From assembly GCA_964612595.1 (NCBI GenBank), contig CAZTFB010000003.1, forward strand, positions 98,272-149,340: DNA of 51,069 nt. The letters are read 5' to 3'. A model generated the notes under the pieces. That model saw only the letters and a list, made by a program, of their open reading frames with translations. It was not told the origin of the DNA and did no database searches. A program made the position numbers and the translations under genes. This stretch comes from an uncultured Gammaproteobacteria bacterium. Lineage in GTDB: Bacteria; Patescibacteriota; Microgenomatia; UBA1406; HO2-37-13b. Shown one piece after another: positions 3,770-51,069 of this stretch (positions are counted from its first letter, which is position 1; every line of letters starts with the position of its first letter).

Positions 3770-6268
3770 ATGAATATATTTAAAAGAAAAAATCGCCATC
3801 AAAGAGGTGAAGTTGCTTCGTTATTGACCATAGTGTCTATGCTTGTTATTACGGCAGGTATTATTATTGGCACAAACTTCAGTCAATCCTCTCGATCGAT
3901 CAATACTGCCCCTCTTGCTGCAGGTGGCCCAACACCTATAGATCTGGGGTACACAGGCGGGAGATGGTTCGACGGTTCACAAGGTTTGATCTGTGCCGCA
4001 GAATTTACCTGTAATGCTGATCCTATTATTCAAGTACTTGAAATTCGATCTCTTGACGGAACTCAGAAATTTAGCTTAGCCACCGATGCAACAGGTCGTG
4101 GTATTCCAGACGGTTCCCCTATCGGCAAGTCAATAACCGGATCGTGTAGCAACAGATCGTACGGTATTTCTGTAAACTGGGATCCACGAATTGAATACAC
4201 AGATGCGCAAAAAAGAAACATAAAAAGATCGACGGGCTATGATATAAAGAAAGGCCAAATACTATTAAGCGTTCGTCAATCAGCGACAGAACAACGATAC
4301 TTTGTATATGATAGACCTACGTGGCTTACGGGTGGCGAAGATGCAATTTTTTACTTTGAATTTGATGCTAAAACAGCTGGTATTACACGAAGATATTCAC
4401 AGATTGCCAAAGGTAAAAAAGGGTGTGCTCCAGAAATTACTGCTACTGTCACACCAACAACTCCATTGTCTGGAACGCCATCACCAACACCTACAAGCAT
4501 CACATCACCAACACCTTCACCAACCGGAACATTGACGTCAACTCCAATACCATCAGCAACACCAACTGGTACAGCAACATCAACACCTACGTCGACCCTT
4601 ACACCAACACCAAGTTGTGGAGGTCCAACCTGCCCTCCACCAACAAATACGCCAACACCAACACCAAGTTGTGGAGGTCCAACCTGCCCTCCACCAACAA
4701 ATACGCCAACACCAATTGTCGGAAATGCATGTAACTATAACGCCCTCGTATACATCCAAGAATGTACGCCAAACGCTAAAGGTGAATGCGAACGCGACAC
4801 AAAAGGCAACTTCATCGCACGCGCACTACCTGCTTCGGAGCTTGCTAAATTTGGCACTATTAATAATAGGCAACTTGCGGGTGGACGTTATGGATCAGAA
4901 CCCGCTTCACGATTTAGCCTATTCACAGGCAATCCAACCGAAGCAACCAGTATTATCAGCACCTTCCCCTACTTTAGTGGCATTCTGGGATCCCAACTTG
5001 CATACTTTAGGTATGATGTGTCACAACCAGTTCCTGCAGGTGTAGACCCACTGAAAAGGACAACGGGAACCACAGGTATATTTATACCTCCTACATTCAC
5101 ACACCCTAATGAACGCTATCCGAACATGGAAACTGCAAGCGTGCGTCTTACATTAAAAAGACCAGACTATAGAATTGTTCCTAGGGGTAATGAAACAAAG
5201 TATTGTAGAAACAATATTTCCGGTGGTTTTATCGGAGCATGTGACCCATCTGCTTACTCCTATCCTGTAGACAACTCTGTCGATCTATCTAAAAGAGATC
5301 CTCGAGATACCATTAACGGTCTTATCGTCGGCTGTGGGCAAAACATAGTGTATGGATGGACAGTGCAAAAATGTGTATCTAACTTTGACTATGTTTTTGT
5401 CATGGATACCTCTACTTCAATGATAACGACCAGAGACATTACAACAGGCAAACTCAAGAAGGACGCAGCAAGCGATGCATTGCAAAACTTCCTCACAAAT
5501 ATTAAAAATTCTGGAGGTGATCATCGAGCATCACTCCTACAATTCAGTAGCAGAAGAAATACTCGCACTGTCGTCCCCTTTACTAATAATATAGATACCG
5601 TAAAAGCTGCTGCTCTAAATGATTTAAAGTATGAAGAAGGAACATGTATTGAGTGTGGTATTCGCGAAACCATTAACCTCCTTACGAATTTCAGAGCTGA
5701 TAAATCTAGAAACGTAGTAGTGGTATTCCTTACAGATGGCTTACCAAATAGTGATCCAGGAAATCCACGTGCAGGTGGCTACGAAGGCGAAATCACGACA
5801 GAGGCTAACAGACTAAAAGCGATGAATATAGCTGCAACTGGATCCACTCCACCAACTGTCATTGCAATCGGCTATGGCAACCCTGTTGCCGCCTCAAACC
5901 CTGATCCACGAGAGTTAGGTACTGCTGAACTTACTCGCGTGATCAAACTTATATCCACTGATGACACATGGGCATTTTCAACAGCTGCTAACATAAGTAT
6001 TAGTGAGGTATTTAGACGTGTAGAGAGTAGTCTTAACTCTTGTTCAAAATCAGAGGCTCTTCATGCAGCATTCATGAAGGCAAAGGATATTAATGGTGAC
6101 GGAATTATTAACACCGTTGATCTCTTCGCGCTGTACGATACTTACTTCCAACAAGGACAAGGACTTTCGGGTGATTTGAACGACGATGGTGTCATTAATT
6201 CGCTCGATGTTTCCCTCATGATTGGTGATCTGGGTACAGTAGTGAGTCCAGAGCTCGAATCACAATGA
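3770..6268 (+). CDS. large surface protein, paralog of 155..3151: signal-anchor, PT/Cys linker, conserved module, vWA/MIDAS, dockerin pair
   Basis: 832-aa ORF. The N-terminus HQRGEVASLLTIVSMLVITAGIIIG is nearly identical to the 155 ORF. Also has FVMDTSTSM MIDAS, FLTDGLPN, and C-terminal DINGDGIINTVDL ... DLNDDGVINSLDV. Confidence 0.85.
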   Translation: MNIFKRKNRHQRGEVASLLTIVSMLVITAGIIIGTNFSQSSRSINTAPLAAGGPTPIDLGYTGGRWFDGSQGLICAAEFTCNADPIIQVLEIRSLDGTQKFSLATDATGRGIPDGSPIGKSITGSCSNRSYGISVNWDPRIEYTDAQKRNIKRSTGYDIKKGQILLSVRQSATEQRYFVYDRPTWLTGGEDAIFYFEFDAKTAGITRRYSQIAKGKKGCAPEITATVTPTTPLSGTPSPTPTSITSPTPSPTGTLTSTPIPSATPTGTATSTPTSTLTPTPSCGGPTCPPPTNTPTPTPSCGGPTCPPPTNTPTPIVGNACNYNALVYIQECTPNAKGECERDTKGNFIARALPASELAKFGTINNRQLAGGRYGSEPASRFSLFTGNPTEATSIISTFPYFSGILGSQLAYFRYDVSQPVPAGVDPLKRTTGTTGIFIPPTFTHPNERYPNMETASVRLTLKRPDYRIVPRGNETKYCRNNISGGFIGACDPSAYSYPVDNSVDLSKRDPRDTINGLIVGCGQNIVYGWTVQKCVSNFDYVFVMDTSTSMITTRDITTGKLKKDAASDALQNFLTNIKNSGGDHRASLLQFSSRRNTRTVVPFTNNIDTVKAAALNDLKYEEGTCIECGIRETINLLTNFRADKSRNVVVVFLTDGLPNSDPGNPRAGGYEGEITTEANRLKAMNIAATGSTPPTVIAIGYGNPVAASNPDPRELGTAELTRVIKLISTDDTWAFSTAANISISEVFRRVESSLNSCSKSEALHAAFMKAKDINGDGIINTVDLFALYDTYFQQGQGLSGDLNDDGVINSLDVSLMIGDLGTVVSPELESQ
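4601..4708 (+). repeat. perfect tandem duplication, 2 x 54 bp, inside the linker of the 3770 ORF
   Basis: 4601-4654 and 4655-4708 are identical (acaccaacaccaagttgtggaggtccaacctgccctccaccaacaaatacgcca). They encode TPTPSCGGPTCPPPTNTP twice. Confidence 0.9.
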
Positions 6269-38952: not shown

Positions 38953-38956
38953 AAAG

Positions 38957-38987
38957 TAGGACCAGGTCCTGTCAGGATCGCGCCCTG
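38957..38987 (+). repeat. REP-like element copy 1 (consensus TAGGACCAGGTCCTGTCAGGATCGCGCCCTG)
   Basis: Exact string taggaccaggtcctgtcaggatcgcgccctg. It contains the palindrome GGACCAGGTCC. Its 3' TG completes an extended -10 (TGTTATAAT) for aclB. Confidence 0.85.
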
Positions 38988-39001
38988 TTATAATATATGC
39001 C

Positions 39002-40183
39002 ATGTCACGAGTAAAAATTACTGAATTCAAGGCTAAATCAATTGTCCTCCCCCAGCTAGGTCAAAAATATACGGGAATACAAGTTAATACAACACTGCAT
39101 AACTGGAACCAAAAAGTAGCCACACTACCACCTTCACAAACATACGTAGTTAAAGTTGATCAAGGCGTAAAGAAACGTGCAAAAAATGGGCTACTTAAAC
39201 TGGATATAAGCTCAGACAAGGTTAAAAATGCTATTGAGTTGCTCGGAGCAAAAGGATTCACCTCATTTTTAGTTGAGCCATTCTCTGCCCATAAACAAAC
39301 TGAGGAGCGATATCTTGCCCTTCAAAGAGTTCGTGAAGGCGTAAAAATGTGGTTCCATAAGCAAGGAGGTATCGATATCGAAGAGACAAGCAAAGGTTCT
39401 CGTATAGAAGCATTCCTTGTTGATAAGGAGAGTGAGATTAAAAAAGCTTCTGAGGCTAGCATGATACCTTATGATATTCTTAAGTCATTGATTGATATAT
39501 TTAAAAAGGAGTATTTTGCGTTTTTAGAAATTAATCCTCTTTTAATAGCCAAAAATAAGTTGAGCTTACTTGACCTTGCTGTCGAAGTTGATAGTGCAGG
39601 TGATTATTTTGTCACATCGTGGCAAAAGAGCGATTTTGTTCAAAATAGTTCATCTTTTGTTGAACAAGCAAACGTTGCAGAGCTCTCTAAGAAAAGTCCT
39701 TCGTCTTTTAGTCTTGAGGTTTTAAATAAGGATGGCGGAATTTGGATGCTCCTCTCTGGTGGAGGCGCGAGCCTTGTGATTGCGGACGAATATTACAATC
39801 TTGGAAAAGGTGCACTCATTGGAAACTATGGTGAATATAGCGGAGCGCCGAACGCAGATGAAACGTATGAGTATGCGAAACAAATTATCTCGTTATTATT
39901 AAAGAGTAAGGCGAAGAAAAAGATTTTACTGATTGCAGGGGGCGTTGCCAATTTTACAGACGTAAGTATAACATTTAGAGGAATTGTGAGAGCGCTGGGA
40001 GAACGCTTAGATCAACTCAAGGCTCAAAAGGTTGCAGTGTATGTCAGACGTGGTGGTCCTCAACAGGAAAAAGGGTTGACGTTGATGCGCGACTTTGTTT
40101 CAAAGTCCCAACTCGGAGGATATATCTCTGGCCCTACATTGAGCTTAGATGAAATTGTTAAGAAATCATTAGATTCACTATGA
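39002..40183 (+). CDS. aclB: ATP-citrate lyase, beta (ATP-grasp, SucC-like) subunit
   Basis: 393-aa ORF colinear with the N-terminal part of eukaryotic ACLY. Matches: VVKVDQGVKKRAKNGLL, FLVEPF, FAFLEINPL, LDLAVEVDSAGDY, IWMLLSGGGASLVIAD, GNYGEYSGAPNADETYEYAKQII, IAGGVANFTDV, VYVRRGGPQQEKGL. Confidence 0.85.
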   Translation: MSRVKITEFKAKSIVLPQLGQKYTGIQVNTTLHNWNQKVATLPPSQTYVVKVDQGVKKRAKNGLLKLDISSDKVKNAIELLGAKGFTSFLVEPFSAHKQTEERYLALQRVREGVKMWFHKQGGIDIEETSKGSRIEAFLVDKESEIKKASEASMIPYDILKSLIDIFKKEYFAFLEINPLLIAKNKLSLLDLAVEVDSAGDYFVTSWQKSDFVQNSSSFVEQANVAELSKKSPSSFSLEVLNKDGGIWMLLSGGGASLVIADEYYNLGKGALIGNYGEYSGAPNADETYEYAKQIISLLLKSKAKKKILLIAGGVANFTDVSITFRGIVRALGERLDQLKAQKVAVYVRRGGPQQEKGLTLMRDFVSKSQLGGYISGPTLSLDEIVKKSLDSL

Positions 40184-41970
40184 GTATTAAACAACTATTA
40201 GACGACACGAAGCTAAACAAGACACGGTCTTGTATTATCATCGGCAATCATCCACCGATCATTCAGTCTATGCTCGACTTTGACTATATGATCGGCCGAA
40301 ATGAGCCTTCTATTAAGGCCATCATTGCAGGTGGGCGTAAATTTGAGCGTTACTTTTTTGGCGAACGCGAGATTGCGATCCCGGTATATGGAAGTGGGCG
40401 CGATCTTTTTAGGACCAGGTCCTGGAAGGATCGCGCCCTGTTCCTGAATGTAAGCTCGGGTAGGCGTGTTTTAGCTTCGACGATTGAGCTGCTTGAAAAC
40501 GTTCCGAACATAGAAGGCGGCGTGTTGTTCGCCGAAAATATGCCGGAACAACACGCCACAGATCTTATTACGTATGCAAAAGCAAAGGATGTGTGGATTA
40601 TTGGCCCTGCTAGTGTGGGTCTTTTGGTGCCGGGCAAGCTAAAGCTCGGCGCGATTGCGGGCGTCGATTATGCACAACTAAAAAGCGCCCGCGCTGCAAC
40701 ACGCGGCAATGTTGCCGTTTTTTCAGCCTCAGGTGGCATGACCAATGAACTTATCTGGAATGTAACAAAGGCTGGTCATGCCCTGTCAATTGCATTGCAT
40801 TTTGGCGGCGATCGTTTCCCCATCTTCTCCCCTGCCGAAGCATTTCTTATTGCCGAAGCTGATAAAGCTACCGAATATATCGTTTATTATGGTGAACTCG
40901 GTGGAGATGACGAATATGAACTCGTTCGCCTTAAAAAAGAGGGCACACTGACAAAACCTGTATTCGCATGCATTGCAGGAACTATTTCAGATCTTTTTGA
41001 AGAACCTCCACAGTTTGGACACGCAAAAGCAATGGCAAAAACCCAAGGTGAATCTGCCCAAGCAAAGCGAACTGCGCTGCGAGAAGCAGGCATTTATACG
41101 CCAGATACATTTGCAGAATTCCTCGCATTGCTTGATACTATTCCTATGCAAAAACATACAGATCATGATGAAATTGAGCTCGGCACTCGCAAAAAATCCC
41201 TCTTTATGAGCTCAATTTCACGCGAGAAAGATGGCAAAGTTGAAGTTCTCGGTACTGACCTGACTGAGCTAAGTTCCTCCACATCATTTGCAGAACTGCT
41301 CATTTCGATGTTTTTGGGTACTAAAATTCAATCCAAGGAAGTTGTCGCGTTCGTTGATACTGTGCTCAAATTACTCATAGATCATGGCCCGCATGTGTCG
41401 GGCGTCGTTAATACAATGATTACAGCACGCGCTGGTAGAGATATGGTCTCATCTTTAGCATCTGGCATCTTAACCATCGGTCCCCGCTTTGGCGGGGCAA
41501 TAAACGAAGCGGCACACAACTGGTTTTCTGCGGTTGAAAACGGCGTGCCGGCCGAAGATTTTGTCGAATCCTTCGCGGCAAAAAAACAATACATCTCCGG
41601 GATTGGCCATAAAAAATATCGTACTGACAATCCCGACCCTCGAGTAGCCAAACTTCTCACGTTCGTTGAGGGTCTCAATAAGAAAAAATACACCACATTT
41701 GCACAACAGGTAGAGGCTATTACCACAGACAAAAGAGCCAACCTGATCCTTAATCTGGACGGTGCGGTTGCAGCAATCATGCTTGATCTTCTTGCTGAAA
41801 AAGAAGGATTTACACCTGAAAAACTTAAGGAATGCATCGACACAGAATTTTTTAATGCGCTTTTCATTTTCCCCCGCTCGGCTGGTTTTATAGCACATTA
41901 TCTTGACCAAAAGCGCCTTGATGAAGGCCTCTTCCGCCTCCCCGACGACGAAGTCATGTTTGCAGAGTAG
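40180..41970 (+). CDS. aclA: ATP-citrate lyase, alpha (CoA-binding plus citrate-synthase-like) subunit
   Basis: 596-aa ORF. Matches ACLY: MLDFDYM, IIGPASVGLLVPGKLKLG, SASGGMTNE, the phosphohistidine loop QFGHAKAMA, DHGPHVSGVVNTMITARAGRDMVSSLASGILTIGPRFGGA, GIGHKKYRTDNPDPR, FPRSAGFIAHYLDQKRLDEGLFR. Confidence 0.88.
   Translation: MSIKQLLDDTKLNKTRSCIIIGNHPPIIQSMLDFDYMIGRNEPSIKAIIAGGRKFERYFFGEREIAIPVYGSGRDLFRTRSWKDRALFLNVSSGRRVLASTIELLENVPNIEGGVLFAENMPEQHATDLITYAKAKDVWIIGPASVGLLVPGKLKLGAIAGVDYAQLKSARAATRGNVAVFSASGGMTNELIWNVTKAGHALSIALHFGGDRFPIFSPAEAFLIAEADKATEYIVYYGELGGDDEYELVRLKKEGTLTKPVFACIAGTISDLFEEPPQFGHAKAMAKTQGESAQAKRTALREAGIYTPDTFAEFLALLDTIPMQKHTDHDEIELGTRKKSLFMSSISREKDGKVEVLGTDLTELSSSTSFAELLISMFLGTKIQSKEVVAFVDTVLKLLIDHGPHVSGVVNTMITARAGRDMVSSLASGILTIGPRFGGAINEAAHNWFSAVENGVPAEDFVESFAAKKQYISGIGHKKYRTDNPDPRVAKLLTFVEGLNKKKYTTFAQQVEAITTDKRANLILNLDGAVAAIMLDLLAEKEGFTPEKLKECIDTEFFNALFIFPRSAGFIAHYLDQKRLDEGLFRLPDDEVMFAE
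40410..40440 (+). repeat. REP-like element copy 2, in frame inside aclA
   Basis: taggaccaggtcctggaaggatcgcgccctg differs from the consensus at 2 positions. It is translated as (F)RTRSWKDRAL. An inverted partial copy GGGCGCGATC (40396-40405) pairs with GATCGCGCCC (40429-40438). Confidence 0.8.
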
Positions 41971-41995
41971 GACCAGGTCCTGTCAGGTTCGCGCC
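41968..41995 (+). repeat. REP-like element copy 3 (left flank of the RAYT gene)
   Basis: taggaccaggtcctgtcaggttcgcgcc, one mismatch to the consensus. Its TAG is the aclA stop codon. The RAYT stop (TGA, minus strand, 41983-41985) lies inside it. Confidence 0.85.
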
Positions 41996-42561
41996 TTTTT
42001 TAGCCAAGGTATTTTTCCGTTCAATCCTTTCGCACTTGACCAGGGATACTCCTTTGGCGCATTTTGATAGCTCTTTAAACTTGCCGGATTCTCGTGAATG
42101 TAGCCTGTCACAATCTGAAAATACGCTTCGTTTTTTACAATAATTGCTTTATACCTACCCTGAAATAGGTGGCCAACATACTTATATTTGAGCGAGTAGT
42201 ACATAGAATATCTAGTAAGTAACGACTTCATAAATCTCTGCATACTTGTAATTCTCGATTGTTCAAGTAGAAAGTGAAAATGATTTGGCATCAAACAATA
42301 TGCATATAAGCATATCTCTTCAGCGTAATTCTTTATACGAGAAGCTCTGGTTATCAAGCGTTGAAGTTGTTGCGAATTATACCCATTATTAGATAAGTAT
42401 GACAGAAGCTGACTTGATGGAATTAAATACAACATCATACACTCAGTAAAATATCGATAGTCATCAGGAGAATGGAAAATCACTGCTTTATTTACTCCCC
42501 TATTGAAAACGTGATAGATTCCGCCAGCAACGTATTGTTTCCTCTCGTGTTTTGGGGGCAT
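41983..42561 (-). mobile_element. IS200-like Y1 (HUH) transposase of the REP-associated tyrosine transposase (RAYT) type
   Basis: 192-aa ORF. GIYHVFNRGVNKAVIF, the HUH motif in CLMPNHFHFLLE, and the catalytic Tyr region GHLFQGRYKAIIV. It is flanked by inverted REP copies 3 and 4, the classical REP-RAYT arrangement. Confidence 0.8.
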
Positions 42562-42608: not shown

Positions 42609-42638
42609 AGGGCGCGATCCTGACAGGACCTGGTCCTA
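42609..42638 (-). repeat. REP-like element copy 4 (right flank of the RAYT gene, inverted)
   Basis: agggcgcgatcctgacaggacctggtccta is the reverse complement of the consensus. Its terminal CTA (42636-42638) is the TAG stop of the oxidoreductase beta gene. Confidence 0.85.
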
Positions 42639-43490
42639 AATGAATTCCTTAGTTATTTCCACAAAGTCAATAAATCTTTCTCTGTCAACCAGCTGTTTTT
42701 CTTCGAGTTGTGGCAACTGATCTGTATACGTCGGGCGATTGTTCTCATATATAACGCCAATGGGAAATTTTTCCTCCTGTGTTGACTGCAGAGCACGCTC
42801 CATAGCTATCTTAAAATTCGTAGGGTCATAGCCCTCTTCAAGATCGTATGCCTTATCTCGATAATATTCATACGTATTTATCTTGTTAAACGTCACGCAC
42901 GGCTGCAGAACATTCACTAATGAAAATCCCTTATGCGCCAATCCCTTTTTTATGAGATCGATCAGCTGCAGCGCATTTCCCGCGAAGCCTTGTGCAACAA
43001 AACTTGCGCCCTGACTTAAAGTAAGCGCTAACGGATTCAGGGGCGCATCAAGCGTTCCAGACGGCGTAGATTTCGATTTTTGGCCTGATTGTGAGCGAGG
43101 CGATACTTGACCCGTTGTAAGCCCGTAAACGCCGTTATCGTGGACTACAACGGTAATATCGTGGTTTCCACGGCACGCATGGAGTATATGATTGCCGCCC
43201 TCGCCATAACAATCACCATCACCCACAATGCAAATGACTGGCATAGTATGTTGGGCCATCTTCATGCCGATTGCTTGGGGCAATGCGCGTCCGTGTAAAC
43301 TATGAAATCCATACGCGTGGAGGACGTCATTCATATTCCCAGAACACCCTATCCCAAAAGCCACCATAATATCCCAAGGATGATAGCCAAGATCAACAAA
43401 CGCACGCTTTATACTTGCCCCAATAGCCCAGTCTCCGCAACCCGGACACCAGGTTGGTGTGTTGCCGTTAAATTCTTCGAGTGTTGACAT
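42636..43490 (-). CDS. 2-oxoacid:ferredoxin oxidoreductase, beta (TPP-binding) subunit
   Basis: Start set at ATG 43490 (MSTLEEFNGNTPTWCPGCGD...). The 24 upstream codons in the ORF track (…RRDPDRTWSY) are a translation of REP copy 5. Motifs: GIGCSG, IVGDGDCYGEGGNH, VHDNGVYGLTTGQ. Confidence 0.85.
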   Translation of the reverse strand: MSTLEEFNGNTPTWCPGCGDWAIGASIKRAFVDLGYHPWDIMVAFGIGCSGNMNDVLHAYGFHSLHGRALPQAIGMKMAQHTMPVICIVGDGDCYGEGGNHILHACRGNHDITVVVHDNGVYGLTTGQVSPRSQSGQKSKSTPSGTLDAPLNPLALTLSQGASFVAQGFAGNALQLIDLIKKGLAHKGFSLVNVLQPCVTFNKINTYEYYRDKAYDLEEGYDPTNFKIAMERALQSTQEEKFPIGVIYENNRPTYTDQLPQLEEKQLVDRERFIDFVEITKEFI

Positions 43491-43491
43491 A

Positions 43492-43519
43492 TAGGACCAG
43501 GTCCTGTCAGGATCGCGCC
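43492..43519 (+). repeat. REP-like element copy 5, between the oxidoreductase alpha and beta genes
   Basis: taggaccaggtcctgtcaggatcgcgcc. The alpha-subunit ORF ends inside it (…ARS*, TGA at 43507-43509 on the minus strand). The beta-subunit ATG is 1 nt from its end. Confidence 0.85.
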
Positions 43520-45240
43520 TTAACGAAATTAATAATCTCCTCAACGAAAAACTGGCGACCATCGTATTTTAGTAGTTTTTCTTTTATATCAATGCCTGTT
43601 TCTTGTCGCAAGAGCCGACCAAACTGGCCGCGGCTATTATTTTCGACTAAGATGTAGCGGCCTTTATGTTTAAATAGCGGAGCGATTGCTTCTACATTGA
43701 GCGGAAACACATGCGTAAAATGAATCATAGCAACCTTTTTTTTCTCGCCTTCCAAGTACTCCATCGCATCCAAAATCACCCCTTTGTTACTCCCCCATGT
43801 GACAAAAATATCATCGGCCTCCTCAAGATTTCCATATGTTTGAGCCGCTTTAAAATGGGTTTTTAGATATGTCTCATTTTTGCGATCGCGCTTTTCTACC
43901 TGCGACTTCCTATTCTCAGCTCCTTCAAACGAATGTCCATACTCGTCGTGTTCATACGAATTAGTTTGATAATGCTTACCTTCTTGGCCTGGAATTAGCA
44001 TAGGCGAAATGCCATCATCGGTTAGTTTGTAGCGCAAATACGCCTCATCTTCGACGCTTCGCACAATCTTTCCACGCTCAATTTCGAAGCTTTTTGAGAA
44101 AAGATCAAAAGCCATCTTTGACGTCGACCAATAACTTTCAGAAAGATGTTTATCGCTCATAACAATCACGGGCGTTTGATATATATCTGCAAGATTAAAG
44201 GCTTCGGCGGATAAATGATACATTTCTTCTACATCTCCCGGTGCAAGAATTATTTTAGGGAACTCACCATGGCCAGAATGGACCGCATAGAGCAAATCTC
44301 CCTGCTCGGTCCATGTCGGGAGACCCGTAGCTGGACCAGGTCGCTGACTCAAAAATATAACGAGCGGCACTTCGGCAATGCCGGCGAGCGAAACGGCCTC
44401 ATTCATAAGGGCAAATCCGCCGCCCGAAGTGCCGCAGGCCGCCCTAGCTCCTGCGAAACTTCCCCCGATCGCAGTCATAATGACCGAAATTTCATCTTCT
44501 GCATGGCGCACGATCATGCCCGTCGTGCTGGCCCAACTTGCCAATCGCTCAATAACTGTAGATGACGGCGTCATAGGATATGCGACATAGAGACGGCAAT
44601 CTCCTGTTACTGCGCCAAGAGAAAACGCATCATTGCCTGTCATAACCATTTGAGGCTCTGCAACAGCCCTTGGTAAGAAGTCTGTAATAATTTCTTCCTT
44701 CGCATTTTTCAGAACATGATCGTATCCCGCTTGTGCCAAACTTTTATTCATTGCCACAACTTCTTCCCCTTTATCGCCAAAAGCTTGCTCGATCATATCG
44801 AATAGGTCCTGGATACGCCATTGCAACAAAGCGATCGACGCGCCAACAGCGACTGTATTCATCATAACGGTGGAACCCTTAAGATCACGCACAATCTTTT
44901 TAATCGGGACTTCTATACTGTGCGCTGGCGGTTGAAAATCAGCGGGAAACAACTCTTTATCATAAATAATGCGACTCTCGGAGGTAAGGCGATCCTTGTG
45001 GAAGGTATAGGTGTCGGGATTGAGACATACTAGAACATCGATATAGTTTTTCGATGATCGAACTTTCTTTGGAGAAATATGTATTTCGAACGTATTATGC
45101 CCGCCTCGAATAAGTGATGGATACTCCGCATACGAGGCGGTATTGTACCCTGCTTTTGTGGCAAGCTTTGAGAAATCGACACCAACGGTCATAATACCAA
45201 ATCCCGCTTCACCGCCGATTTTCCACAAAAGCGTGTCCAT
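43507..45240 (-). CDS. 2-oxoacid:ferredoxin oxidoreductase, alpha subunit (gamma-alpha fusion type)
   Basis: 577-aa ORF. N-terminal gamma-like domain (KIGGEAGFGIMTVG...EYPSLIRGGHNTF) followed by the alpha domain (MTGNDAFSLGAVTGDCRLYVAYPMTPSS, CGTSGGGFALMNEAVSLAG). Confidence 0.85.
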   Translation of the reverse strand: MDTLLWKIGGEAGFGIMTVGVDFSKLATKAGYNTASYAEYPSLIRGGHNTFEIHISPKKVRSSKNYIDVLVCLNPDTYTFHKDRLTSESRIIYDKELFPADFQPPAHSIEVPIKKIVRDLKGSTVMMNTVAVGASIALLQWRIQDLFDMIEQAFGDKGEEVVAMNKSLAQAGYDHVLKNAKEEIITDFLPRAVAEPQMVMTGNDAFSLGAVTGDCRLYVAYPMTPSSTVIERLASWASTTGMIVRHAEDEISVIMTAIGGSFAGARAACGTSGGGFALMNEAVSLAGIAEVPLVIFLSQRPGPATGLPTWTEQGDLLYAVHSGHGEFPKIILAPGDVEEMYHLSAEAFNLADIYQTPVIVMSDKHLSESYWSTSKMAFDLFSKSFEIERGKIVRSVEDEAYLRYKLTDDGISPMLIPGQEGKHYQTNSYEHDEYGHSFEGAENRKSQVEKRDRKNETYLKTHFKAAQTYGNLEEADDIFVTWGSNKGVILDAMEYLEGEKKKVAMIHFTHVFPLNVEAIAPLFKHKGRYILVENNSRGQFGRLLRQETGIDIKEKLLKYDGRQFFVEEIINFVKARS

Positions 45241-47710: not shown

Positions 47711-47775
47711 GGGAGTATTTTAGGAAATGAAGATTAAGAAATTGTTAGAAAGTTGGCGTAGAAGGAGTTGAAAAT

Positions 47776-47877
47776 ATGGCACAAAAAAACCGCCTCAGTA
47801 AGCTGTTTACTACTGGACTAGCAGATCTTCGCTGTCCAACCCCTGTCCTTGTCGGACAGAAAGTTCTATTCGTATAG
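47776..47877 (+). CDS. candidate 33-aa small ORF with canonical SD (uncertain; may instead be part of a structured RNA)
   Basis: GAAGGAG (47761-47767) lies 8 nt before ATG 47776. Reads MAQKNRLSKLFTTGLADLRCPTPVLVGQKVLFV*. It lies almost entirely within a long inverted repeat (arms about 47783-47815 and 47876-47904). Confidence 0.25.
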   Translation: MAQKNRLSKLFTTGLADLRCPTPVLVGQKVLFV

Positions 47878-47949
47878 TAATAAACAGCCTATCAAGGCGG
47901 TTATCCAGCTGTATTTGGGCTCTTGCTGCGCAAATACAGCTGGACTCAT
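47866..47949 (-). CDS. candidate 27-aa small ORF behind the conserved AAGGAG-CTGAG-ATG start module
   Basis: The minus strand reads gaaAAGGAGctgagATG AGT CCA ..., giving MSPAVFAQQEPKYSWITALIGCLLLYE*. The C-terminal half is hydrophobic. It overlaps the convergent 47776 ORF by 12 nt. Confidence 0.3.
   Translation of the reverse strand: MSPAVFAQQEPKYSWITALIGCLLLYE
47905..47943. repeat. second copy of the CCAGCTGTATTTG/CAAATACAGCTGG hairpin
   Basis: The 13-bp stem is identical to that at 35832-35872. The 13-nt loops are related when the copy at 47905 is read on the minus strand (GCAGGTAGCGC vs GCAGCAAGAGC on the minus strand). Confidence 0.8.
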
Positions 47950-48021
47950 CTCAGCTCCTTTTCTATGTAAAGAAGCTTAGAAGAGCGCCCCTGGTGATGA
48001 GCCAGGGGCTATCTCTGATGA
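47945..48021 (-). repeat. island intergenic module, copy A (hairpin GCCCCTGG-7 nt-CCAGGGGC plus SD/ATG box)
   Basis: ctcatctcagctccttttctatgtaaagaagcttagaagagcgcccctggtgatgagccaggggctatctctgatga. The left part matches copy B almost base for base. The right part (tatctctgatga) matches copy C. Confidence 0.85.
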
Positions 48022-48355
48022 CAGCAGACAATTTCAGGAGTCTACTCGTTCCTGAATCCTTTTGAATGTAGGATTAAACTGAGCAGTTGTTAACCATGCT
48101 CAGGGTTTTGCTAATTGTTCTTTCATCTCAGCTTTTTCGCCTTGATGTTGCACAACCACAATCAGCAAAGGTTATGCCAAGCCTTTTTGGGAGCTCACCC
48201 CCTGTTAGCTGACCAAAGGCTAACGTGGCTCTATCCGCAAGAGCATCGCGGGAATGGCTTTTCACTGTTGCCTTCGTACCATTCCTTGTCTGTTTTTAAC
48301 GTCCGCGGCAACTCGGACGGATGACAGGCGGATCGCGGATTCGCATTACGACCTC

Positions 48356-48793
48356 CTAGAAGTTATCTATGCCAACCCCGCCCGTTGAACGGGCGAGTTT
48401 GACAAGCACCGGATTTGACACCTCCATGGCAAAGCCATGGACCCGGGTTCCCGGGATCTCCGACGGCTTCAGCGCCGCAATGGAGGTGTCTTCGTCAGTA
48501 AGAACTACGATTTCAGGCCGGTAGAGCGCATCTCCAGCCTTGATCGCGTCCTCGATGTACTTATGGGCCGCACGGACTGCGGCCGCGATGTCCGTGCCGC
48601 CACCCGAGAAGTTCCCGTCTGCGAACTTTTTGATGAGTTCGCGGGCTTCTTCGGGGGTAGAGGCACGGTGGACAGTGCTGAGATTTGTGTCGAAGACCGA
48701 CACGAAAACCTCAGCATCACCGTCTAAGACGGCCTTGAGGCGGTTCAACACCTGCGAGCCGCCCACGACTGTCCTGCTGAAACCTGAGGACAC
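48356..48793 (-). CDS. vWA-domain protein, 5' end unresolved (possibly truncated or frameshifted)
   Basis: High GC3 frame. vWA pattern: FVSVFDT..., FSGGGTDIAAAV (MIDAS Thr loop), EIVVLTDEDT, VHGFAMEV, LARSTGGVGI. The first in-frame canonical start after the upstream gene's stop is GTG 48793, which would remove beta-strand 1 (KLAAYHVSSGFS). The ORF-track ATG 48937 lies in a low-GC3 frame overlapping the upstream gene by 101 nt. Confidence 0.5.
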   Translation of the reverse strand: MSSGFSRTVVGGSQVLNRLKAVLDGDAEVFVSVFDTNLSTVHRASTPEEARELIKKFADGNFSGGGTDIAAAVRAAHKYIEDAIKAGDALYRPEIVVLTDEDTSIAALKPSEIPGTRVHGFAMEVSNPVLVKLARSTGGVGIDNF

Positions 48794-48836
48794 GTGGTAT
48801 GCCGCGAGCTTTTTATTTTTTTTGGTGAGAGCTACC

Positions 48837-49328
48837 TCACCATGGACACTCGGTCGTCTCCGTGCCCGGGATCGCGGGCTCGCTGCCCCACACGAGGGCG
48901 TGCGAGCTCCAAAACGCGACGCTGTTGGGCGTCGCATTCCAATCCCAGGGCTCGGGTTCGGCCTTGTGCCCGATGAAAGCGGTGACGAGGACGTAGGCCC
49001 CCATCGCCGCCTCCGCGCCGTCGGCTATCTTGAGGATGACCACGACGGTCGAGCAAGGCTCGGGTTGGCGGTTCTTGACGAACCGTGTCAACCCGAACCT
49101 TTTGGGCCGCTGTGCGTATACGATCTGGTCGCCGGGCCCCGTGGCGACACAGACCGTCTCGCCGATTTGCCGACCGAAGTCGACCTCTTCGACGAGAAAT
49201 GCCCTGCCTCCAACGTCTATCTGCGCCAGTGCGGCTGGCAGGATTGCCGCGACTGACGCATGAAGGTGGGAGTTGTACCGGTCGAAGACCGGCTCTCCCC
49301 CCTTCAACGTGCCGATTTGATTCCCCAT
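48837..49328 (-). CDS. hypothetical protein (GC-rich island)
   Basis: 163-aa ORF with very high third-position GC. It has a strong SD: AGGAGG, 4 nt, then ATG (ttaAGGAGGtgtcATG). No family recognised. Confidence 0.65.
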   Translation of the reverse strand: MGNQIGTLKGGEPVFDRYNSHLHASVAAILPAALAQIDVGGRAFLVEEVDFGRQIGETVCVATGPGDQIVYAQRPKRFGLTRFVKNRQPEPCSTVVVILKIADGAEAAMGAYVLVTAFIGHKAEPEPWDWNATPNSVAFWSSHALVWGSEPAIPGTETTECPW

Positions 49329-49428
49329 GACACCTCCTTAAGGTTGTGAGGGGTTTATTACGGCGACAAAAGTAACGACTAAAATCTTAGTAATTACATC
49401 TGCCGCCGCAAAAAATCGGCTAATAATG

Positions 49429-49512
49429 TTAAATAACTTCCGTTCGGTTTATGGATTGATTACCATATTCCTGCTTGTCAATGTTCAGAGTTAAAGCCAC
49501 GCTTTCACTCAT
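49429..49512 (-). CDS. candidate 27-aa small ORF behind the conserved AAGGAG-CTGAG-ATG start module
   Basis: The minus strand reads gaaAAGGAGctgagATG AGT GAA ..., giving MSESVALTLNIDKQEYGNQSINRTEVI*. It lies in an AT-rich spacer between GC-rich genes. Confidence 0.35.
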   Translation of the reverse strand: MSESVALTLNIDKQEYGNQSINRTEVI

Positions 49513-49630
49513 CTCAGCTCCTTTTCAATGTAAAGAAGCTTAGAAGAGTGCCCCTGGTGATGAACCAGGGGCCTCCCCGATGTTTTACGTCATACGGGTG
49601 TTGACGGAGGATGGTCAGTCGTCCTCGTCC
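49508..49630 (-). repeat. island intergenic module, copy B (full length: acidic-tail codons, stop, CGTCA hairpin, GCCCCTGG hairpin, SD/ATG box)
   Basis: Shares ccgatgttttacgtca[tc]acgggtgttgacggaggatggt[ct]agtc with copy C. Shares ctcatctcagctcctttt...gaagag[ct]gcccctggtgatga with copy A. Confidence 0.85.
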
Positions 49631-49977
49631 GCCTGCTGGTGATTTGGCCCTTGCTGAGTGTGGCGTTGTTCTGCCTCAATCCTGCGGAGCCAGTTCTGGT
49701 GCCTCGTTCGCATACGTGTCGCCACGGCGTCGACAATTTCGTCCTTGTCGACGCCATTGTTCACGCCCATTTGAAGGGTCACCTCCTCATTCAGACGGGA
49801 GATGATTCTCATTGCGGTGTCACAACTGCCGGTGGCGAAGAGTACCTCGCGCCACTCTTTGCCATCTTCTTCAACGTGCCTCCTCACCACCTCAAAACGA
49901 GGTGGCCAGCCTCTCAAGCTGAGGAGGCGGTCCGTCAGCGTGATATTGAACAATTGGCAGAATTCATCGTTTCTCAC
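49615..49977 (-). CDS. hypothetical protein with acidic C-terminal tail (GC-rich island)
   Basis: 120-aa ORF with a GTG start preceded by AAAGGAG and a 7-nt spacer. Ends ...QQADEDD*. No family recognised. Confidence 0.6.
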   Translation of the reverse strand: MRNDEFCQLFNITLTDRLLSLRGWPPRFEVVRRHVEEDGKEWREVLFATGSCDTAMRIISRLNEEVTLQMGVNNGVDKDEIVDAVATRMRTRHQNWLRRIEAEQRHTQQGPNHQQADEDD

Positions 49978-50175
49978 CTTGTTACTCCTTTAGGTGTGAG
50001 CTTAGCTCATAGGCGGGTAAGGTTTTTGCTCTCTCGCGAGAGACATTGTGGGTACAAAAAACATGCAAAGTCGTCTTAGTACTCACAATGCCTCCCGTAA
50101 GGAGAACAACCAAATCCTGTCTAAAAAGTACACGGAGCAAAATTACTCCTCACAGCGCTTGATAATCTCAAGCGC

Positions 50176-50277
50176 TTTGAAGAGTGCCCCTGGTGATGAG
50201 TCAGGGGCTATCTCTGATGATTCCCGATGTTTTACGTCACACGGGTGTTGACGGAGGATGGTTAGTCCTCGTCGTCC
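50176..50277 (-). repeat. island intergenic module, copy C (acidic-tail codons, stop, CGTCA hairpin, GCCCCTGA/TCAGGGGC hairpin)
   Basis: tttgaagagtgcccctggtgatgagtcaggggctatctctgatgattcccgatgttttacgtcacacgggtgttgacggaggatggttagtcctcgtcgtc. Confidence 0.85.
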
Positions 50278-50996
50278 AGCGGGTTGAGGCTGCCGCAGAA
50301 CTCGTCGTCATGCGGGTCGTAGACCCGCTTGGCGACGACCGCGTCGTCGACCGTGTCGTCGACATCGTCGCCCTGCCCGCCCTTTTTCTCGTTTCGGCTC
50401 CGCCACGCGGCGGAGCCGAAGTTGTGCTCCGCTTCCCACTCGAACGAGTGGGGCTGGAGCACACGCTCCGCGCCGCTCCACACCCGGAGGGCATTGAACT
50501 CAATGCCCTGGATGTGGTCGCTCTGTCCCTCGATGACAATGAGGGACCTTTGCACCTGCGCCCGCAGCCGCAGGCCAACCACCGCAGCGGCCGCGGTGGA
50601 TTGGTTTGAATGTGCGTGGTGTTGACCACGCACAAGACTCACTGACGTGCGAGGCGGGAGGATTCGAACCTCCCAGCCCCCCTCCTTGAGGGGGCGTAGC
50701 GCCCCCTTCTTCATCCAGGGAAACCCCTGGATGGCGACGACGGTGCCCTCGAAGGCACCGTTGCCGACTACCTCCACCTGGCCTGCGCTGCTGCGGGCCT
50801 TGTAGCCCGCAGTGCTGACCAGCACCGGGGCGTCGGTATACCAGCCCGAAAAGGGCTGGCCGACGACCATGTTCACGAGGGGCCCGATTTCCGCGCCGTA
50901 GCGCAGAATCAGGCCCCCCTCGCTGTCCACGGTCACGTTGACCGTGGACAGCATGAGGACACGAGAGTACGTATCCACAAAGTACGCAGTGGTCAT
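50262..50996 (-). CDS. hypothetical protein with acidic C-terminal tail; the central part is an atypical, highly structured, tRNA-like segment
   Basis: 244-aa ORF with high GC3 at both ends (MTTAYFVDTYSRV... and ...DPHDDEFCGSLNPLDDED*). GC3 drops across about 50600-50670. An SD-like AAAGG lies 8 nt before the ATG. Confidence 0.5.
   Translation of the reverse strand: MTTAYFVDTYSRVLMLSTVNVTVDSEGGLILRYGAEIGPLVNMVVGQPFSGWYTDAPVLVSTAGYKARSSAGQVEVVGNGAFEGTVVAIQGFPWMKKGALRPLKEGGWEVRILPPRTSVSLVRGQHHAHSNQSTAAAAVVGLRLRAQVQRSLIVIEGQSDHIQGIEFNALRVWSGAERVLQPHSFEWEAEHNFGSAAWRSRNEKKGGQGDDVDDTVDDAVVAKRVYDPHDDEFCGSLNPLDDED
50648..50694 (-). other. tRNA-like 3' fragment (anticodon-arm-like hairpin, T arm, acceptor 3' strand), not a complete tRNA
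   Basis: The minus strand reads CCCCC-TCAAGGA-GGGGG GCTG GGAGG-TTCGAAT-CCTCC CGCCTCG CA. The T loop is a perfect GTTCGAATC consensus. No matching 5' acceptor strand or D arm lies upstream, and position 33 would be C. Confidence 0.4.
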
Positions 50997-51069
50997 CGCT
51001 TCTACCTTTCATGCTACTCCACCAGACCATCTGGTGAAGGTCCCCTTTCGGGAGACACTGTGAGAACGA

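Follow-up and report, generated by a model that had tools for sequence, protein, structure and literature searches.

A GC-rich gene segment in a Microgenomates genome as a probable instance of a variable-cargo locus of the Candidate Phyla Radiation

Results

Organization of the GC-rich segment

Contig CAZTFB010000003.1 of GenBank assembly GCA_964612595.1 contains, at positions 98,272 to 149,340, a stretch of 51,069 nt, hereafter called the window, whose last three kilobases carry GC-rich genes on the minus strand. As shown in Table 1, four such open reading frames (ORFs) lie within 48356-50996 and are named here p244, p120, p163 and the vWA remnant. Read in their sense, the locus runs from a head small RNA (sRNA) gene with its terminator through a leader (L1), p244, a trailer (T1), a two-hairpin element (H1), a second leader (L2), p120, T1, H2, p163, the vWA stump, H3, a host-type hairpin and a small ORF to ndk. 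The cassette unit is leader L, a GC-rich ORF, trailer T1 and element H, and cassettes stand in tandem in one orientation. A sequence-only reading of the window had described this end of it as a mobile element, plasmid or phage segment acquired not long ago from a high-GC donor and carrying a vWA protein and three unknown genes, two of them with acidic tails.

Table 1. Features of the locus in the window and RNA features of related loci. Coordinates are those of the window unless a locus is named.
Feature	Coordinates	Strand	GC	Remarks
Conserved 33-codon ORF	47777-47878	+		Begins MAQKNRLSKLF; right border of the variable region; not GC-rich
Palindromic host-type hairpin	47905-47943			13-bp stem CCAGCTGTATTTG..CAAATACAGCTGG
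H copy 3	47944-48021	-		GC-rich P1 hairpin with conserved UCAUCA loop, then 17-bp P2 helix; closes the last cassette
vWA remnant	48356-48793	-	0.59	C-terminal 131 residues of a ~450-aa CoxE-type vWA protein; no Shine-Dalgarno site upstream
p163	48837-49328	-	0.64	Intact; CPR-wide family, also phrog_23674; invariant His, Cys, Asp and Glu; Shine-Dalgarno site AAGGAGG-4-ATG
H copy 2	49507-49584	-		95% identical to copy 3
T1 trailer of p120	49576-49630	-		Last acidic codons and stop of p120 plus 40 nt
p120	49615-49977	-	0.56	Orphan GC-rich ORF; GTG start; Shine-Dalgarno site AAAGGAG-7-GTG; C-terminal ADEDD
L leader copy 2	49978-50129	-		Promoter-like box, structured 5' region, alternative pairings including GGGAGG, upstream ORF
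H copy 1	50135-50220	-		P2 sequence different, helix retained
T1 trailer after p244	50223-50277	-		
p244	50262-50996	-	0.65	N-terminal ~170 residues define the family; variable C-termini; C-terminal LDDED
L leader copy 1, 3' part	50997-51069	-		Remainder, and ~190-nt head sRNA gene with terminator, 75-330 nt past the window end (L001, L002, L004)
Head RNA-like gene, ~190 nt	L001 40-253; L032 488-705; L015 5670-5883; L014 3755-3973			Two long hairpins, strong intrinsic terminator
Long non-coding leaders	L037 4949-6000; L039 4402-6000; L042 1578-2973; L045 3824-5000; L046 189-1704; L052 5247-6506			Sigma70-type promoters, many hairpins, RRGGAGAG motifs

Base composition and translation signals

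The mean GC content of the window is about 42%. Calculated per kb, GC was 0.36-0.48 across 1-48 kb and then 0.56, 0.54 and 0.60 over 48-51 kb. The four ORFs (56-65% GC) deviate by z = 3.8-6.3 from 95 host windows of 500 nt (mean 0.423, sd 0.036). At 150-nt resolution, GC above 0.55 was confined to the inside of these ORFs; the spacers between them have 0.44-0.48, with 150-nt windows as low as 0.37, and 73 nt past the last ORF GC is back at 44%. GC at third codon positions (GC3) is 0.68-0.83 in the annotated frames, compared with 0.41-0.43 in the neighbouring host genes. The annotated frames are ordered GC3 > GC1 > GC2, the usual pattern of high-GC coding sequence, and alternative frames have no such order. 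The idea that the GC-rich segments are structured RNA genes was rejected on this coding-type GC3 and on the protein-level homologues of p163 and p244.

Strong Shine-Dalgarno (SD) sites precede two of the four ORFs, p163 and p120, and p244 has only a weak AAAGG upstream, compared with no real SD at any of the 34 host ORFs in the window. A third site listed earlier, AAGGAG-5-ATG, fronts a small ORF within repeat H. The GC-rich minus-strand genes, their third-position GC and the AT-rich spacers of the sequence-only reading are thus borne out by these measurements. The GC rise, which it put at 47.76 kb, sets in near 48.3 kb. Among the four ORFs its canonical SD sites reduce to those of p163 and p120, its statement that host genes lack them is upheld, and the acidic C-termini of p120 and p244 are present.

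At many host ORFs (window 1-47400) a TATAAT-like box stands 5-10 nt before the ATG. This position directly before the start codon suggests that host mRNAs may be widely leaderless.

Continuity of the assembly and identity of the host

Contigs were retrieved from many runs by exact-protein look-up (Logan contigs). Those from SRR15237799, SRR15237800, SRR22392799, SRR35845086 and DRR774217 span the island and host genes at 99.5-100% identity. The GC-rich ORFs, ndk and further host genes lie together on one contig in L001, L004, L005, L006 and L007. At least five runs, drawn from no fewer than three accession series, give the junction between host and island with exactly the same bases, and one of the strains is a divergent one from another study (99.46% identical). 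L005, which comes from another accession series, has 65 SNPs, every one of them in the host part. Three contigs (L001, L002, L004) prolong the window by 349 nt of 44% GC, in which the conserved head RNA gene lies. Because the junction recurs in independent contigs, the island is genuine and not a misassembly, and the doubt that had been voiced about a simple chimeric join was justified. The same three contigs, from three different runs, all break off at one and the same position, on the 5' side of the head sRNA region at its very edge; an assembly-graph branch from population variation or a repeat is suggested by this shared end.

For the neighbouring POR protein, identity is 91% to Microgenomates bacterium OLB23, 84% to L014 and 82% to L015. 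L014 and L015 come from two metagenome-assembled genomes, one of them a 938-kb chromosome. The host of the window is a Microgenomates bacterium of the Candidate Phyla Radiation (CPR).

The same site in sister genomes

In both L014 and L015, a GC-elevated segment (0.50-0.66) lies between TrmB with the ~190-nt RNA gene and ndk, and its ORFs differ from those of the window (167, 146 and 523 aa in L014; 160 and 85 aa in L015). OLB23 has the same RNA gene, junction and leader type, then a p120-like first cassette of 69% GC, then the contig end; its upstream genes are syntenic with those of L014 and L015. No empty site was found in these relatives, all three of which have GC-rich cargo there.

The borders of the site in this lineage are the head sRNA gene on one side and the small conserved ORF adjoining ndk on the other. 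The variable region begins directly after the head sRNA terminator, and the final 68 nt of the head RNA gene are 100% identical between the window lineage and L014. TrmB stands next to the head sRNA in all three relatives in which that side is assembled. At the other border, the segment 47777-47878 has 92% nucleotide identity to L014 and L015. Since the nucleotide sequence is conserved and the predicted peptide diverges after about residue 17, the segment may be an RNA gene or a very short peptide gene.

Modules H, T1 and L

Element H was aligned in 12 copies from the window, L014, L015 and L034. Common to all of them are the motif UCAUCAG, a P1 hairpin whose loop reads UCAUCAC, and a P2 helix that is long. 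At least four different sequences were seen for the P1 stem (GCCCCUGG, CUCUCGCGGG, CGCCUGG and CCCCGCGG). In P2, a helix of 17 pairs, 97% of cells are paired, and 12 of the pairs have changes on both sides (compensatory). For the whole structure 92% of cells are paired, compared with 40-52% in slid controls, and the observed score was reached in 0 of 500 shuffles. The many G-U pairs indicate that the fold belongs to the sense strand. A T-run of the kind that marks an intrinsic terminator follows P1 or P2 in none of the 12 copies. Copies 2 and 3 form a 66-nt direct repeat which brackets the p163/vWA-remnant segment only and is part of the wider module family. The two T1 trailers of the window are 93% identical to each other, and a 90% copy follows p146 in L014.

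Six copies of leader L were compared. Each combines a promoter-like box with a region for which two alternative folds are predicted, a pair of local hairpins or a single long helix. Four segments are predicted to pair as 1:2 and 3:4, or as 2:3, around a short upstream ORF (uORF), which in copy 2 ends 4 nt ahead of the p120 start. The predicted local hairpins have GNRA-type loops (GAAA, GCGA, GUGA), and the predicted long helix buries GGGAGG beside the uORF start.

Within the window the repeated module occurs only inside this locus and is not a host-type repeat. The hairpin at 47905-47943 is indeed a copy of a host hairpin, the one at 35833-35871 that follows gene 35873-36877; the two are 87% identical, and the window has no other copy. 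A scan of 185,579 species genomes with exact patterns of the L core and of one H stem type (GCCCCUGG) found them only in genomes S14, S15 and OLB23, at loci already fetched. Scans of viral contigs for H and L gave no match, and in metagenomes L was detected at a single true locus (L034), beside three chance matches in coding sequence. To judge from their sequence conservation, the AT-rich spacers are regulatory or structural modules common to sister species and not donor DNA.

p163 and the vWA remnant

p163 has 319 homologues, and the 120 listed are 61-77% identical; the source names shown among these matches are Parcubacteria, Kaiserbacteria, Kuenenbacteria, Wolfebacteria, Patescibacteria or plain 'bacterium'. 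The window copy retains all invariant residues of the family. It gave the sole PHROGs match, to PHROG 23674 (E = 1.5e-25), a family without assigned function, and it resembles hypothetical jumbo-phage proteins at 40-48% identity; clear MoxR or vWA partners were not found in the jumbo-phage neighbourhoods of its homologues. The AF2 model of p163 has a pLDDT of 96 and no PDB match at E <= 0.001. No Pfam family was matched by p163, so that by this test it is no recognisable described third component of MoxR-vWA systems.

The adjoining ORF, described earlier as a vWA protein, is only a C-terminal fragment of one. It is 76% identical to residues 319-449 (of 449) of the L039 vWA protein and to residues 340-470 of the L052 protein. 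Matches to VWA_2 and VWA_CoxE in Pfam were all sub-threshold. The N-terminal ~315 residues are gone, including what would be the start of the vWA domain, and no full domain with its metal ion-dependent adhesion site (MIDAS) is left. A MoxR gene is absent from the window, where the vWA remnant can start as little as 44 nt from p163. MoxR is present in all seven relatives with a p163 locus, and there p163 and the MoxR-vWA pair always go together. The window copy is an old p163-MoxR-vWA operon reduced to an intact p163 and a vWA stump. Among five lineages the vWA proteins are 65-72% identical, compared with 73% for RecA, and TrmB is far more diverged (26-44%). With vWA identity close to that of RecA, a long residence of the cargo in these genomes is plausible.

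p244 and p120

The p244 family, defined by the first ~170 residues, has 115 cluster representatives, and the nearest relatives of p244 are 29-48% identical. p244 aligns with its homologues over 170 residues and has a long open frame with coding-type GC3. One homologue, P0124 of the CPR-like L042, adjoins TrmB in a TrmB-gap-gene setting. The AF2 model of p244 has a pLDDT of 83, and its fold has no match in PDB or BFVD at E <= 0.001. Pfam gave nothing for ten p244 relatives or for the sister cassettes. For p120, no homologue was found in a search of 5.8 billion proteins; its one weak homologue is the first cassette of OLB23 (34% over 58 aa). PADLOC and NCBIfam gave nothing usable for the four window proteins, and PADLOC found no known defence genes. 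Neither fold nor sequence searches against PDB and BFVD produced a match at E <= 0.001.

A perfect tRNA T-arm-like sequence, GGGAGGTTCGAATCCTCCC, lies inside p244 at 50650-50672 and is followed by GCCTCGCA. We rejected it as a tRNA or tmRNA fragment serving as an att site. ARAGORN made calls there only once its thresholds were lowered, neither L012 nor L042 has the motif in the homologous gene, and the protein alignment is continuous through it. The motif is treated as a chance or lineage-specific feature.

The equivalent locus in other CPR genomes

Eight further loci from CPR genomes outside Microgenomates were fetched: seven with p163 and one (L042) with a member of the p244 family. A TrmB-family regulator is read divergently beside the gap and the cargo in seven of the eight. 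Among the p163 loci, six of seven have the divergent TrmB and then a gap of 0.7-1.6 kb; L047 has an unannotated 269-aa gene there instead. The usual cargo of the seven p163 loci is p163, a bpMoxR AAA+ ATPase (PF20030) and a ~450-aa vWA protein, which matches VWA_CoxE in most. The non-coding stretch of 0.7-1.6 kb has strong promoters of the sigma70 type where it was read, and in L042 also a short terminated RNA. Its motif RRGGAGAG occurs 5-12 times per kb in the long leaders (Table 1), on the sense strand only, compared with 0.3-2 per kb elsewhere.

Cargo GC exceeded that of the flanks in all eight loci (0.40-0.66 vs 0.26-0.49), for example 0.58-0.64 vs 0.40 in L045, 0.55-0.57 vs 0.33-0.41 in L046 and 0.40-0.46 vs 0.26-0.40 in L041. 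In the seven loci checked, SD sites of the AAGGAGG type stand at most cargo genes and almost never at flanking genes. The nearest relatives of p163 and of the vWA fragment are 58-77% identical. All neighbourhoods fetched for these and for relatives of p244 look like parts of small AT-rich genomes of the CPR type; they represent the equivalent locus, and the GC excess is seen in them too. At the gathering score, Rfam matched only tRNAs, and none of its families matched L, H, the head sRNA or the long leaders. Literature searches found no description of this locus.

In one CPR lineage, L039, a gene of the bAvd / 23S_rRNA_IVP type (4024-4401) and AGAATTTAGAATTTAGG repeats (4402-5700) lie between TrmB and the cargo.

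Other features of the window

REP-like repeats (TAGGACCAGGTCCTGTCAGGATCGCGCC) were seen at 38955-38989, 40408-40442, 41966-42000, 42609-42640 (minus strand) and 43490-43524. They cluster round a Y1_Tnp (IS200/RAYT-like) gene at 41983-42561, and their sequence is unrelated to the modules of the island. An ATP-citrate-lyase-like gene pair with Citrate_bind, Ligase_CoA and Citrate_synt domains (39002-41970 and 42636-45240) adjoins a 2-oxoacid:ferredoxin oxidoreductase in this CPR genome. Between 2942 and 14909, several very large ORFs carry at their ends dockerin-like D-x-N-x-D-G-x-I-N repeats, a 38-nt family with 7 copies.

Discussion

In our view the GC-rich segment represents a conserved variable-cargo locus of CPR (Patescibacteria) and is not a one-off foreign island; we give this reading a probability of about two in three. 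The window itself holds a decayed p163-MoxR-vWA operon and, upstream of it, two lineage-restricted cassettes, p244 and p120, set within conserved RNA-structured spacers. Cassette content differs between sister species, and two cases show how it may turn over. In its 5' half the OLB23 leader corresponds to L1 of the window and in its 3' half to L2, which fits a crossover between L copies that removed or added the p244 cassette. A near-identical L1 leads a p146-type gene in metagenome contig L034 and p244 in the window. The hybrid leader and the leader swap support exchange by homologous recombination in shared modules.

In the mechanism that we propose, cassettes would be gained, lost and swapped through homologous recombination in the shared L and H modules. 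L would act as promoter and regulated 5' untranslated region, its alternative pairings hiding or exposing the SD-like GGGAGG by the uORF. H could serve in the sense RNA as a structure for processing, stabilising or terminating its 3' end, and TrmB might control the site. The cargo may take part in an interaction that varies between strains, for example conflict, defence or contact with a host. Selection, or GC-biased repair at a hotspot of recombination, would maintain the GC excess, which would then not reflect recent arrival.

Several points weigh against this account. The cargo has no above-threshold match in Pfam, NCBIfam, PADLOC, PDB or BFVD, with PHROG 23674 as the exception. TrmB beside the window's own site is extrapolated from OLB23, L014 and L015, because the window contigs end 349 nt past the window. 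The similarity of vWA identity to RecA identity fits vertical descent and horizontal exchange equally. No compensatory changes were found in the six L sequences, and the L structure comes from conservation and predicted energy. The promoter, terminator and regulatory roles are ones that we infer, and neither a recombinase nor a mechanism of cassette exchange was identified.

The locus resembles several known systems in part. MoxR-vWA ternary trios have been described as diversifying conflict systems (Kaur, Burroughs, Iyer & Aravind 2020, PMC7159879), and the phyletic pattern given in that description names actinobacteria, cyanobacteria, planctomycetes, chloroflexi and some proteobacteria and does not name CPR. 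Like these trios, the relatives of the window locus encode bpMoxR (PF20030), a CoxE-type vWA protein (PF05762 VWA_CoxE) and a conserved third protein in one operon. Unlike them, the third protein, p163, has no Pfam family or PDB fold match, the hosts are tiny CPR genomes, and the window copy lacks MoxR and ~315 N-terminal vWA residues. Accessory or defence hotspots between core genes likewise combine fixed borders (here the head sRNA/TrmB, and the small ORF with ndk) with variable content. In contrast to them, no known defence genes (PADLOC) or mobile-element genes were found here, and the cargo has one compositional and translational style across the whole superphylum. Attenuator-type leaders share with L the predicted alternative pairings around a uORF, and REP-like 3' stem-loops share with H a stable stem-loop pair directly after the ORF. 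L and H differ from both in that they match no Rfam family, H lacks a U-tract, and each is confined to a single locus.

The closest likeness that bears on mechanism is to integron arrays and clusters of attC sites lacking integron-integrases (CALINs). They too have tandem co-oriented cassettes of unrelated, often orphan ORFs, a repeated hairpin element between these and strain-variable content. Site-specific capture by such logic, with H or L as folded single-strand sites and a recombinase encoded elsewhere (e.g. Y1 or tyrosine), would also account for the 66-nt direct H repeats that flank the p163 segment, and could be brought together with the Y1_Tnp gene 6 kb away and with the contigs of three runs that break at the same base. 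We nevertheless think it unlikely. As far as sequence extends on either side of the array in the window, L014, L015 and L032, neither IntI nor attI was found. We rejected H as attC on the twelve copies read directly: the RYYYAAC/GTTRRRY cores (R''/R') are absent, and the conserved motifs are UCAUCAG and UCAUCAC. The G-U pairs favour an RNA over a DNA hairpin, and the Y1 gene has its own distinct REP-like repeats. Cassettes of the window lineage each have their own leader, SD and promoter-like box, and the sole event that could be reconstructed here, the OLB23 hybrid leader, looks like plain homologous recombination.

To the recent import proposed in the sequence-only reading, from a high-GC donor such as the bacterial host of an epibiont, we give little credence. 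In its favour, GC and GC3 are strongly shifted and SD use departs from that of the host, p120 is an orphan, p244 has distant relatives only, p163 matches a PHROG and jumbo-phage hypothetical proteins, and cassette content varies among close relatives. This much of the acquisition claim holds, in that composition and translation signals differ and gene content has been gained or lost; the recent mobile element does not. Integrase, relaxase and capsid genes are absent from 47.7-51.07 kb, from the 349-nt extension and from ~10 kb of the sister loci. The closest homologues (58-77%) belong to CPR-type genomes at the equivalent locus, TrmB-adjacent in seven of eight. Import of the whole segment would have brought GC-rich spacers, and the spacers are host-like in composition and conserved in the lineage. 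The reading had itself named close homologues of the same composition at the same locus of sister genomes as evidence against import, and this is largely what was found: the sisters have GC-rich ORFs there, though different ones.

The chances are slim that the segment is an ordinary decaying operon, in which p163-MoxR-vWA would be a vertically inherited housekeeping system (e.g. for maturing metal cofactors), with junk as its extra ORFs and with repeats left over from local duplication. In favour of this reading are the known role of CoxD/CoxE-type pairs in cofactor maturation, the invariant His and Cys residues of p163, conservation at the RecA level, the truncated vWA gene and the loss of MoxR. 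Yet p244 and p120 keep long open frames with coding-type GC3, and p244 can be aligned with homologues over 170 residues. Covariation and conservation between species are seen in the modules, sister genomes differ in their cassettes, and the GC excess and SD use would be left unexplained. An assembly chimera of a CPR contig with a high-GC organism, suggested by the abrupt change of composition close to the contig end, is refuted in practice by the reproduced junction and by the return to 44% GC past the ORFs, running into an sRNA gene common to the sister genomes.

Beyond the variable-cargo locus as such, we put forward a wider proposal only tentatively. CPR bacteria may keep a dedicated expression and exchange site marked by TrmB, a long purine-motif leader RNA and SD-dependent GC-rich cargo, in genomes that are otherwise AT-rich and whose other genes have no SD sites. 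In Microgenomates the site would hold a cassette array bounded by structured RNA elements, a cassette system without an integron integrase. Its GC offset would be actively maintained, by selection on RNA or DNA or by biased gene conversion, and would not stem from recent transfer. A bolder variant would have the 'standard bacterial' signals of the cargo reflect expression outside the CPR cell.

For island-finding methods the locus is a caution, since a compositional anomaly here does not equal recent import. Much of bacterial diversity belongs to the CPR, whose accessory genes are for the most part without a known function. At this locus, genes that differ from their genome in base composition and translation signals recur across classes. 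The locus therefore offers a handle on how reduced genomes acquire and express accessory genes, on the role of the widespread p163-MoxR-vWA trio, and on whether local GC can stay far from genomic equilibrium without recent transfer.

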